The notes under the pieces were generated by a model. The model searched no databases. It had not been told where the DNA came from and worked only from the letters and a program-made list of their open reading frames with translations. From IMG/VR virus record IMGVR_UViG_3300032782_000361: 53,925 nucleotides of DNA; one strand, given 5' to 3'. Source of the DNA: a virus. Shown piece after piece: positions 2,930-3,011 of the stretch; the first letter of the stretch is position 1, and the number at the start of each line of letters is the position of its first letter. A program made the translations under genes and the position numbers.

Positions 2930-3011
2930 GCGGGTGTAGCGAAGCGGCGAACGCATCAGTCTTCCAAACTGACGGAGAAATCCCTCGTGGGTTCGAATCC
3001 CACCATCCGCT
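2930..3011 (+). tRNA. type-II (long variable arm) tRNA with Gly-like identity, apparent anticodon UCC
   Basis: Acceptor GCGGGTG/CATCCGC, U73, type-II D-arm GCG-AAGCGGCGAA-CGC, anticodon stem TCAGT/ACTGA with loop CTTCCAA, 14-nt variable arm, T-arm GTGGG-TTCGAAT-CCCAC. 82 nt. Confidence 0.5.

Follow-up and report, generated by a model that had tools for sequence, protein, structure and literature searches.

By the textbook, a long variable arm is reserved for the transfer RNAs (tRNAs) for serine, leucine and selenocysteine and for bacterial tRNA-Tyr. To our knowledge, the exceptions described so far are mis-charging tRNAs, namely the nev-tRNAs and the allo-tRNAs. The nematode nev-tRNAs join a variable arm to a non-Ser/Leu anticodon (Gly CCC, Ile UAU); they are eukaryotic, possess a Leu body with A73 in all 115 genes, and are charged with leucine and not by glycyl-tRNA synthetase (GlyRS) (Hamashima et al.; PMC3333845). 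The allo-tRNAs, or selC* tRNAs, occur in prokaryotes and phages and combine a long variable arm with non-Ser anticodons and, in some, U73; their acceptor/T branch is of the 8/4 or 9/3 type, a tetraloop closes their long D stem, their anticodon stem is lengthened, and they are inferred to be Ser acceptors (Mukai et al. 2017; PMC5389517). A different precedent is offered by phage isoacceptors that are structurally unlike the host copy, such as the T5 tRNA-Tyr, whose variable loop differs and which evades retron-Eco7 (PMC13096335), and the T5 tRNA-Lys, which evades PARIS. Here we describe a tRNA gene at positions 2930-3011 of a 53,925-nucleotide (nt) stretch of viral DNA (IMG/VR record IMGVR_UViG_3300032782_000361, hereafter the window), in which a 14-nt, hairpin-bearing variable region is set into a tRNA-Gly with the anticodon UCC. 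Its sequence suggests that it is likely a functional phage tRNA-Gly(UCC) that inserts glycine at GGA and GGG, a long-arm variant of a class-I tRNA.

The gene departs from each of these precedents. Like the nev-tRNAs, it couples a long arm to a non-Ser/Leu anticodon, but it is a phage gene whose body and discriminator (U73) are of Gly type. It resembles the allo-tRNAs in its origin, its arm and its U73, but its 7-base-pair (bp) acceptor stem, 5-bp T stem and 3-bp D stem with a 10-nt loop differ from theirs. In the T5 cases the changes lie within an existing arm or the anticodon loop and the nuclease has been demonstrated, whereas here a whole arm has been added and no cognate defence is known. 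A further likeness is to the canonical class-I tRNA-Gly(UCC), with which it shares the CUUCCAA loop, G1:C72, C2:G71, G3:C70, U73, G10:C25 with G45, the 7/5 branch and a standard T loop; its acceptor-end signature is indistinguishable from that of 112 short-arm phage genes. The canonical variable region comprises 4-5 nt, in contrast to the 14 nt and hairpin found here. In common with the class-II tRNAs (Ser, Leu and bacterial Tyr), its variable arm is long and made up of a short stem and a tetraloop, and its D stem has 3 bp, positions 13 and 22 being unpaired. Unlike them, it features a Gly anticodon, U73 (rather than the G73 of Ser or the A73 of Leu and Tyr) and C2:G71 with G3:C70 (rather than the G2:C71 and A3:U70 of Ser), and the stem of its arm is shorter than in typical Ser arms.

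On the plus strand the gene reads GCGGGTG-TA-GCGAAGCGGCGAACGC-A-TCAGT-CTTCCAA-ACTGA-CGGAGAAATCCCTC-GTGGG-TTCGAAT-CCCAC-CATCCGC-T, an unambiguous cloverleaf (Table 1). ARAGORN calls a tRNA-Gly(tcc) at 2930-3012 and sets its anticodon at position 34, and the Rfam model RF00005 is matched over its full length (model positions 1-71) by 2930-3011 with 61.2 bits (gathering score 29; E = 1.5e-11), the alignment placing a 12-nt insertion exactly within the variable region. The minimum-free-energy (MFE) structure from RNAfold is the cloverleaf with the variable-arm hairpin GGA-GAAA-TCC. The nucleotides for tertiary interactions are complete, comprising U8, A14, G15, G18G19, A21, C48 (with G15), G53, T54-C56, A58 and C61. 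These results bear out what an earlier note had read in this gene, an 82-nt tRNA with UCC in the loop CUUCCAA, G1:C72, C2:G71, G3:C70 and U73. The 14-nt length that it gave for the variable arm also stands, but not the 4-bp stem, which has 3 bp closing a GAAA tetraloop. The note had named an alternative fold with a Ser or Leu anticodon as the finding that would count against its reading; none exists by ARAGORN, Rfam or RNAfold. A different anticodon register was rejected, as the CTTCCAA arm is the sole 5-bp stem with a 7-nt loop, and an intron in the variable region was rejected on the grounds of a 9-10-nt insert, the lack of a bulge-helix-bulge motif and of group-I features, and the bacterial-type phage context.

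The D arm had been described as Ser/Leu-style, but this form is not diagnostic, since phages carry near-identical D arms on class-I tRNAs of the isotypes Thr, Cys, His and Asn. We pooled 1,759 ARAGORN tRNA calls from fetched loci, mostly phage contigs; the closest D arms in this pool belong to class-I tRNAs for Thr, Gly(CCC), His, Pro, Val, Cys and Asn, and that of the 83-nt tRNA-Thr(UGU) of Rhizobium phage RHph_I1_18 is one inserted nucleotide apart. In a pairwise nearest-neighbour ranking of the whole tRNA against the pool, short alignments and the Gly-rich composition of the pool governed the outcome. The 43-nt 5' half has no exact match in IMG/VR, and blastn of the tRNA against E. coli genomes returned no match.

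Table 1. Parts of the tRNA-Gly(UCC) gene and the tRNA block in which it lies, in window coordinates.
Feature	Positions	Strand	Description	Basis
Whole tRNA gene	2930-3011	+	82 nt up to discriminator U73; CCA not encoded, CTAC next	ARAGORN, Rfam, sequence
Acceptor stem, 5' strand	2930-2936	+	GCGGGTG; pairs with 3004-3010	sequence, structure
Acceptor pairs			G1:C72, C2:G71, G3:C70, G4:C69, G5.U68, U6:A67, G7:C66; seven pairs, one G.U	
Linker			U8 and A9, between acceptor stem and D arm	
D arm	2939-2954	+	GCG-AAGCGGCGAA-CGC; 3-bp stem G10:C25, C11:G24, G12:C23; A13/A22 unpaired; A14, G15, G18G19, A21 present	
D loop			10 nt, normal; carries G18G19	
A26			between D arm and anticodon arm	
Anticodon arm	2956-2972	+	TCAGT-CTTCCAA-ACTGA; 5-bp stem, 7-nt loop	ARAGORN, Rfam, RNAfold
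Anticodon	2963-2965	+	UCC (decodes GGA/GGG)	ARAGORN
Variable region	2973-2986	+	CGGAGAAATCCCTC, 14 nt; C44, G45, hairpin, 3' tail CUC ending in C48	direct parse, Rfam
Variable-arm hairpin	2974-2983	+	GGA-GAAA-TCC; 3 bp (G2974-C2983, G2975-C2982, A2976-U2981) and GNRA tetraloop GAAA	RNAfold
T arm	2987-3003	+	GTGGG-TTCGAAT-CCCAC	sequence, Rfam
Acceptor stem, 3' strand	3004-3010	+	CATCCGC	sequence, Rfam
Discriminator	3011	+	U73	sequence
tRNA block	2768-3088	+	Val(CAC)-Thr(GGU)-Gly(UCC)-Gly(GCC); four genes, spacers 3-11 nt, Gly(UCC) third	ARAGORN

The published determinants of bacterial glycine identity are U73, G1-C72, C2-G71, C35 and C36, to which the consensus adds a (G10-Y25):G45 triple (PMC9976931). 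All of them are found in the sequence: the anticodon is of the type NCC (C35, C36), U73 stands with G1:C72 and C2:G71, and the nucleotides of the triple are present as G2939, C2954 and G2974, the triple itself being a candidate given the long arm. The variable region is the one part that lies outside the class-I range. To place the acceptor end among the phage isotypes we surveyed the pooled calls. Short-arm Gly(UCC) genes (n = 112) feature U73 in 99, G:C at 1:72 in 106, C:G at 2:71 in 106 and G:C at 3:70 in 98; for long-arm Gly(UCC) genes (n = 45) the corresponding counts are 44, 44, 44 and 36. The tRNA-Ser genes (n = 73) favour G73 (58), G:C at 1:72 (67), G:C at 2:71 (72) and A:U at 3:70 (67), the tRNA-Leu genes (n = 124) A73 (123), G:C (76), C:G (90) and C:G (71), and the tRNA-Tyr genes (n = 37) A73 (37), G:C (30), G:C (27) and G:C (20). 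The tRNA at 2930-3011 carries the Gly signature at every position and violates each class-II signature at a position that is near-invariant in that family. C2:G71 and G3:C70 occur in none of the 73 phage tRNA-Ser, and U73 occurs in none of the 161 phage tRNA-Leu and tRNA-Tyr and in 9 of the 73 tRNA-Ser. The literature agrees: A73 is crucial for Leu identity and conserved for Tyr, and bacterial tRNA-Ser conserve G1-C72 and G2-C71, with G73 (PMC9976931).

The codons of the window were examined for the meaning of GGA and GGG, which make up 170 of the 409 Gly codons (41%) in 12 confident open reading frames (ORFs). A GH5 glycoside hydrolase encoded at 40498-42306 (+) is a cellulase-family enzyme (Pfam E = 1e-50) with up to 70% identity to metagenomic endoglucanases. 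When it is aligned with 120 homologues, GGA falls at columns that are Gly in 118 of 118, 120 of 120 and 113 of 120 sequences, and the mean Gly fraction is about alike at GGR codons (0.54) and GGY codons (0.63). GGA means glycine in this genome and there is no sign of reassignment, low-level mistranslation being outside the reach of this test.

The architecture is not confined to the window. A complete scan of IMG/VR with the pattern CTTCCAA-N(18-32)-GGTTCGAATCC, which sets the UCC loop and the consensus T loop at long-arm distance, returned 100 stretches, 55 of which are tRNA-Gly(tcc) genes of 82-88 nt by ARAGORN. With the window gene added, the set comes to 44 distinct sequences, whose variable regions measure 12-18 nt; among them, G1:C72, C2:G71 and U73 are each found in 42, G3:C70 in 34 and A3:U70 in 8, and compensatory changes occur in every stem. 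The window gene fits this group alongside 43 others, sharing the Gly identity set, the UCC anticodon, a variable region of 12-18 nt that usually forms a capped hairpin, and a location in a phage tRNA array. A one-off chimera, which the earlier note had considered, is ruled out by this membership.

The variable regions fall into three groups. The first comprises GNRA-capped hairpins whose stems covary (GAC/GTC, GC/GC, GTC/GAC, GGA/TCC, GAGC/GCTC, GCGA/TCGC and TTAAGA/TCTTAA), the second a conserved sequence type, AGGCGAATAG(T/G)T(T/C)(A/C)C, and the third the AAAGATAATATCACACC type. A MAFFT alignment of 20 members set the arm hairpins in different registers, and a tetraloop-anchored count with shuffles was therefore used. 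A hairpin of at least 3 bp is found in 28 of the 36 distinct variable regions, compared with 14.9 +/- 2.6 (maximum 24) in mononucleotide shuffles, and a GNRA loop closed by at least 2 bp in 18 of 36, compared with a shuffle mean of 1.1 and a maximum of 5. Some arms are also kept in sequence: AGGCGAATAGTTTAC and CGGAGAAATCC are conserved over divergent tRNA bodies. The window hairpin, CGGAGAAATCC, recurs identically in five other Gly(UCC) genes (L061 and the metagenomic L250, L257, L259 and L262), whose acceptor, D, anticodon and T stems differ from those of the window gene, and also in one tRNA-Asn. A metagenome scan with a pattern for the D arm and anticodon gave no matches; one that included the arm hairpin gave 53, of which five are tRNAs and the remainder fit the chance expectation for 18 specified bases. 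Hairpins in excess of the shuffles, with covarying stems, show selection on structure, perhaps just keeping the insert harmless. A normal-length Gly(UCC) gene is also present in 10 of the 55 long-arm arrays. The long and short copies are merely 65-78% identical, which suggests that the long form is an old or imported paralogue and not a fresh insertion.

Cellular genomes almost lack such genes. We made the pattern stricter by adding CGCT at the acceptor end, in which form it matches 45 viral loci; in 185,579 bacterial and archaeal genomes (one per species, 596 Gb) it occurs in nine places. ARAGORN calls three of these nine tRNA-Gly(tcc). Two of the three lie on 3-9-kb tRNA-array contigs binned into metagenome-assembled genomes and are probably phage, and the third is on a chromosome-sized Dehalococcoidia contig. 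The view that class-II-shaped tRNAs decoding Gly codons are abnormal is upheld for cellular life by these counts. Among phages, too, the long form is a minority. In a later scan that allowed normal spacing, at least 120 matches were listed; long-spacing loci account for 3 of the first 80 among the matches listed, and the newly fetched loci contain 1 long form in 107 Gly(UCC) calls. Isolated jumbo phages of Enterobacterales in GenBank carry genes of this type, annotated as 'tRNA-Gly': Serratia phage BF (annotated length 85 nt), Yersinia phage fHe-Yen9-04, and Erwinia phages including Hallingskeid (86 nt) and several pEa_SNUABM phages. In Serratia phage BF it is the sole Gly gene among tRNAs 5-31, which fits a role as the phage's ordinary GGA/GGG decoder. 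In a full-text literature search, mostly outside subscription journals, neither long-arm tRNA-Gly nor long-arm tRNAs of class I were found described for phages. The long-arm phage tRNA-Gly form a recurrent, phage-enriched and apparently previously undescribed group.

Taken as a glycine tRNA, the gene product would share a transcript with the Val, Thr and Gly(GCC) tRNAs on either side, from which RNase P and 3' nucleases of the host would release it. As CCA is not encoded in the gene, it would have to be supplied by the host CCA-adding enzyme. Host GlyRS would then charge the tRNA with glycine by way of U73, G1:C72, C2:G71 and C35/C36, and the charged tRNA would read GGA and GGG as glycine. The 14-nt variable region is best pictured as a compact GNRA-capped hairpin grafted onto an ordinary tRNA-Gly body, which would project from the side of the L shape where class-II tRNAs carry theirs. 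EF-Tu and the ribosome accommodate class-II tRNAs, and given this placement they should tolerate the arm. [quoted passage not shown]

Several points weigh against this account. Expression and charging, for the gene as for the family, are predicted solely from sequence, and the tolerance of bacterial GlyRS for a long arm is likewise a prediction. Some serylation may occur: seryl-tRNA synthetase (SerRS) senses long variable arms and ignores the anticodon, U73 is found in some phage tRNA-Ser (9 of 73), and allo-tRNAs with G73 or U73 have been taken as Ser acceptors (PMC5389517). The GH5 gene could be a recent acquisition, in which case its codons would not reflect translation in the phage. Moreover, the divergent normal Gly(UCC) kept in 10 of the 55 loci hints that the long copy may do something extra. 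Overall, the gene has an unusual and real architecture, its most probable function is ordinary glycine decoding, and recoding or missense decoding is unlikely.

Glycine decoding is kept in the readings of the arm that survive best. It is possible that the arm is a neutral, tolerated expansion without a function of its own, with insertions drifting into the variable loop and persisting under relaxed constraint on phage tRNAs. The array around the gene is structurally odd, in that 7 of its 15 tRNAs reach the Rfam gathering score and several feature compact D arms, and long class-I tRNAs of many isotypes occur in phages: where loci were picked regardless of arm length, a size of at least 81 nt was found for 23 of 769 distinct class-I tRNAs (3.0%). 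About half of the pooled phage tRNA-Leu (57 of 124) are shorter than 80 nt and without the long arm, and the arms of the Gly(UCC) group are heterogeneous in sequence and in length (12-18 nt). Drift does not readily account for hairpin formation and GNRA capping far above shuffles, or for covarying stems, which point to selection on structure, maybe merely for harmlessness. Nor does it account for the arm sequences conserved over divergent bodies, or for the clustering of long arms by genome. Other class-I tRNAs are long in 44 of 396 cases (11.1%) at loci with a long-arm Gly(UCC) and in 25 of 792 (3.2%) elsewhere (odds ratio 3.8, p = 1e-7), a statistic that ignores phage relatedness.

Among the long class-I tRNAs that we parsed are tRNAs for Asn, Cys, Trp, Pro, Glu, Met, Thr, His, Val and Gly(GCC) with short capped hairpins, and the 83-nt tRNA-Thr(UGU) of Rhizobium phage RHph_I1_18 provides an instance from GenBank. 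Further long arms were observed on viral tRNA-Ile(UAU) genes (L011, L139, L182, L190 and others), whose variable arms of about 24 nt carry a conserved loop, CAGATTA, on stems that covary (TCCC/GGGA, TCTC/GAGA, TACGG/CCGTG and AGCGC/GCGTT). In Serratia phage BF, an 87-nt gene with a long variable region (KY630187.1 313219-313305; L289 30220-30306) encodes tRNA-Lys(UUU), a known target of anticodon nucleases.

We tentatively propose that the arm has been selected as a module, added by phages to tRNAs of class I (Gly, Thr, Asn, Cys, Lys, Ile and others) and marking them apart from host tRNAs, and that it serves either escape from a hypothetical host defence that reads or cuts the tRNA on its variable-loop side or immunity of the gene to homing endonucleases. 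Both functions are offered as leads. In the first, which taken singly is doubtful, the arm would hinder attack on the tRNA by a host nuclease or toxin directed at tRNAs, or would spare the phage copy from a phage factor that depletes host tRNA-Gly. [quoted passage not shown] The clustering by genome (11.1% versus 3.2%), the divergent normal Gly(UCC) kept alongside in 10 of 55 arrays, the additional 87-nt tRNA-Lys(UUU) of Serratia phage BF, and the maintenance of AGGCGAATAGTTTAC and CGGAGAAATCC across divergent bodies are all consistent with counter-defence or self-marking. Glycine tRNAs are also targeted, in that tRNA-Gly and tRNA-Thr are specific targets of the defence-associated toxSAS FaRel2; however, FaRel2 reads the acceptor stem alone, a minihelix being sufficient (PMC11559606). 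As the window tRNA keeps G1:C72, C2:G71, G4:C69 and G5.U68, it would gain no protection from the arm. No nuclease or toxin is known to cut or read the variable loop of tRNA-Gly, the co-occurrence statistics ignore phage relatedness, and the arm is found on 1 of the 25 tRNAs of this phage.

The second function is unlikely when taken by itself. Here the arm would be a DNA-level by-product of homing-endonuclease traffic: an insertion would destroy the recognition site of an HNH or GIY-YIG enzyme that targets tRNA genes, conferring self-immunity, and selection on the RNA would then do no more than keep the insert compact. The premise is that, within a tRNA, insertions are tolerated in the variable loop and nowhere else. 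When 3,197 ORFs from 215 phage loci were clustered all against all, the two clusters most enriched at long-arm loci proved to be an HNH family (16 loci, versus 2 loci without long-arm class-I tRNAs) and a SegE-like GIY-YIG family (18 versus 4). An endonuclease gene lies within 100 nt of 7 of 46 long-arm and 2 of 84 short-arm Gly(UCC) genes (p = 0.0095), and of 8 of 56 long and 39 of 918 short tRNAs of other class-I isotypes (p = 0.004). In the viral loci L014 and L015 an HNH gene ends 6 nt from the long-arm tRNA, and in Erwinia phage Hallingskeid one starts 17 nt after it. The association is suggestive; several of the counted loci are near-duplicates, which inflates the p-values, and the counts ignore phylogeny. 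Moreover, no endonuclease gene adjoins about 85% of the long-arm tRNAs, and the 65-78% identity of co-resident long and short copies argues against recent insertion. Within the window, 7 kb separate the tRNA from the nearest HNH gene (9977-10531), and the flanking small ORFs match no endonuclease family. Endonuclease genes of the HNH and SegE-like GIY-YIG types that stand beside long-arm tRNAs are found at L014 3966-4646, L015 3697-4377, L017 8987-9631, L023 5442-6365 and L235 2596-3144, among others.

The earlier note had suggested a recoding or missense-suppressor tRNA. In such a case the arm would recruit SerRS, or the synthetases for Leu or Tyr, so that GGA and GGG are partly read as Ser or Leu, in the manner of nev-tRNAs or allo-tRNAs. 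A class-II shape with a non-class-II anticodon is the nev-tRNA pattern, which includes a Leu-charged tRNA with the Gly anticodon CCC (PMC3333845), and SerRS is blind to the anticodon and sometimes tolerates U73 (PMC5389517; 9 of 73 phage tRNA-Ser). We nevertheless consider this very unlikely for the window tRNA, as its acceptor end is of Gly type and contradicts Ser, Leu and Tyr alike. Against Ser stand the absence of C2:G71 and of G3:C70 from the 73 phage tRNA-Ser (G2:C71 in 72, A3:U70 in 67) and the G1-C72/G2-C71 conserved in bacteria; against Leu and Tyr stand the absence of U73 from 161 phage genes and the importance of A73 (PMC9976931). The stem of the arm has merely 3 bp, the Gly identity set is conserved over the family (U73, G1:C72 and C2:G71 each in 42 of 44), GGA occurs at invariant Gly positions of the GH5 enzyme, and this is the sole UCC tRNA of the array.

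Such missense tRNAs do appear possible in phages. A tRNA on another viral contig (L013, 631-671 region, IMGVR_UViG_2900277485_000001) sets UCC on a Leu-type body with G1.U72, C2:G71, C3:G70, A73 and a Leu-like D arm, and its variable arm possesses a 5-bp stem, TTCTC/GAGAG. By sequence, L013 is a better candidate than the window tRNA for a Gly-to-Leu missense tRNA, and would be the closer phage analogue of the nev-tRNAs.

A decaying pseudogene or non-translational tRNA-like element is highly improbable: CCA is not encoded, the neighbouring tRNAs are structurally aberrant and the MFE z-score is -1.8, but the gene has the fifth-best Rfam score of the array (61 bits), its stems are intact with all tertiary nucleotides conserved, and the same build is seen in 44 distinct sequences, each of the stems showing compensatory changes among them.

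The window forms an end of a larger contig. A 309-residue ORF (1386-2315) adjoining the tRNA block was found on a 101-kb metagenome contig in ENA (ERZ27256589 k141_2299559), and its relatives lie on IMG/VR viral contigs of 57-363 kb. These relatives, and a gene content of small same-strand ORFs with endonuclease VII, HNH and PTH2 domains, suggest that the window derives from a large phage. Megablast of window positions 1-12000 against GenBank phages gave no match, and the jumbo-phage contigs with relatives of the 309-residue ORF carry no tRNA array nearby with which synteny could be compared. ARAGORN detects 15 tRNA genes in the window and at least 25 on the contig when 8.6 kb of upstream sequence is included. 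Among these 25 the gene at 2930-3011 is the sole UCC tRNA and the only one with a variable arm of this type. The Val-Thr-Gly-Gly block is probably one transcript; no sigma-70-like promoter was found within 1000-4300, the promoter and terminator scan around the block being uninformative. The tRNA-Gly(GCC) at 3016-3088, described earlier as canonical, is not so, scoring 41 bits in Rfam and featuring a compact D arm (4-bp stem, 4-nt loop) and A73. Compact D arms of this kind, with a 4-6-bp stem, a 4-nt loop and no G18G19 context, were observed at 3016-3088, 5263-5335, 5398-5470, 5526-5599 and 5906-5975, all on the plus strand.

Other tRNAs of this and a related contig are also unusual. The tRNA at 9888-9964 (+), with the anticodon UCA, is labelled SeC by ARAGORN and scores 53.6 bits in Rfam; with its 7/5 branch, short variable loop, extended anticodon stem and G73 it is not a real tRNA-Sec, and resembles an opal suppressor or a tRNA of the Trp(UCA) kind. 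A PTH2-like ORF (9541-9876) ends shortly before it, and the HNH ORF (9977-10531) follows after 13 nt. TGA ends 5 of the 12 confident ORFs, which speaks against global TGA recoding; the comparison of ORF lengths is uninformative at 60% GC. In the upstream part of the contig (L001), the tRNA at 7874-7949 is called tRNA-His with the anticodon AUG (A34), which is unusual for bacteria-type systems, and the tRNAs at 72-145 and 7012-7089 (74 and 78 nt) carry Leu anticodons and A73 and have no long variable arm. A related jumbo-phage contig (L003 13411-13563, IMGVR_UViG_3300044796_000662) features a CUA-anticodon, amber suppressor-like tRNA followed by an odd tRNA for which a 2-base 'anticodon' is called. 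Further along the window, an 858-residue ORF at 14860-17436 (+) matches the Major Vault Protein shoulder (E = 3.7e-28) and Vault_3 repeats, which is unusual for a phage-like contig, and a 2,046-residue ORF at 20020-26160 (-) has no match in Pfam or PHROG.

These data indicate that phages repeatedly keep a long arm on tRNAs with their own class-I identity, and that cellular genomes almost never do. The arm is found on roughly 1-2% of phage Gly(UCC) genes with the searched motif, and on about 3% of class-I phage tRNAs in arrays. Such genes are silently labelled tRNA-Gly in GenBank, and filters on length or class may miss them or misread them as Ser/Leu-like suppressors. The isolated phages that carry them (Serratia BF, Yersinia fHe-Yen9-04 and the Erwinia phages) make the question of their function directly testable. 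If the arm is neutral, it would serve as a gauge of the structural latitude that GlyRS, EF-Tu and the ribosome grant to a tRNA. If it is functional, it would reveal an unrecognised layer of the tRNA-centred arms race among phages, host defences and homing endonucleases, and should it serve marking or immunity, class-II-shaped class-I tRNAs would comprise a new category of phage counter-measure.

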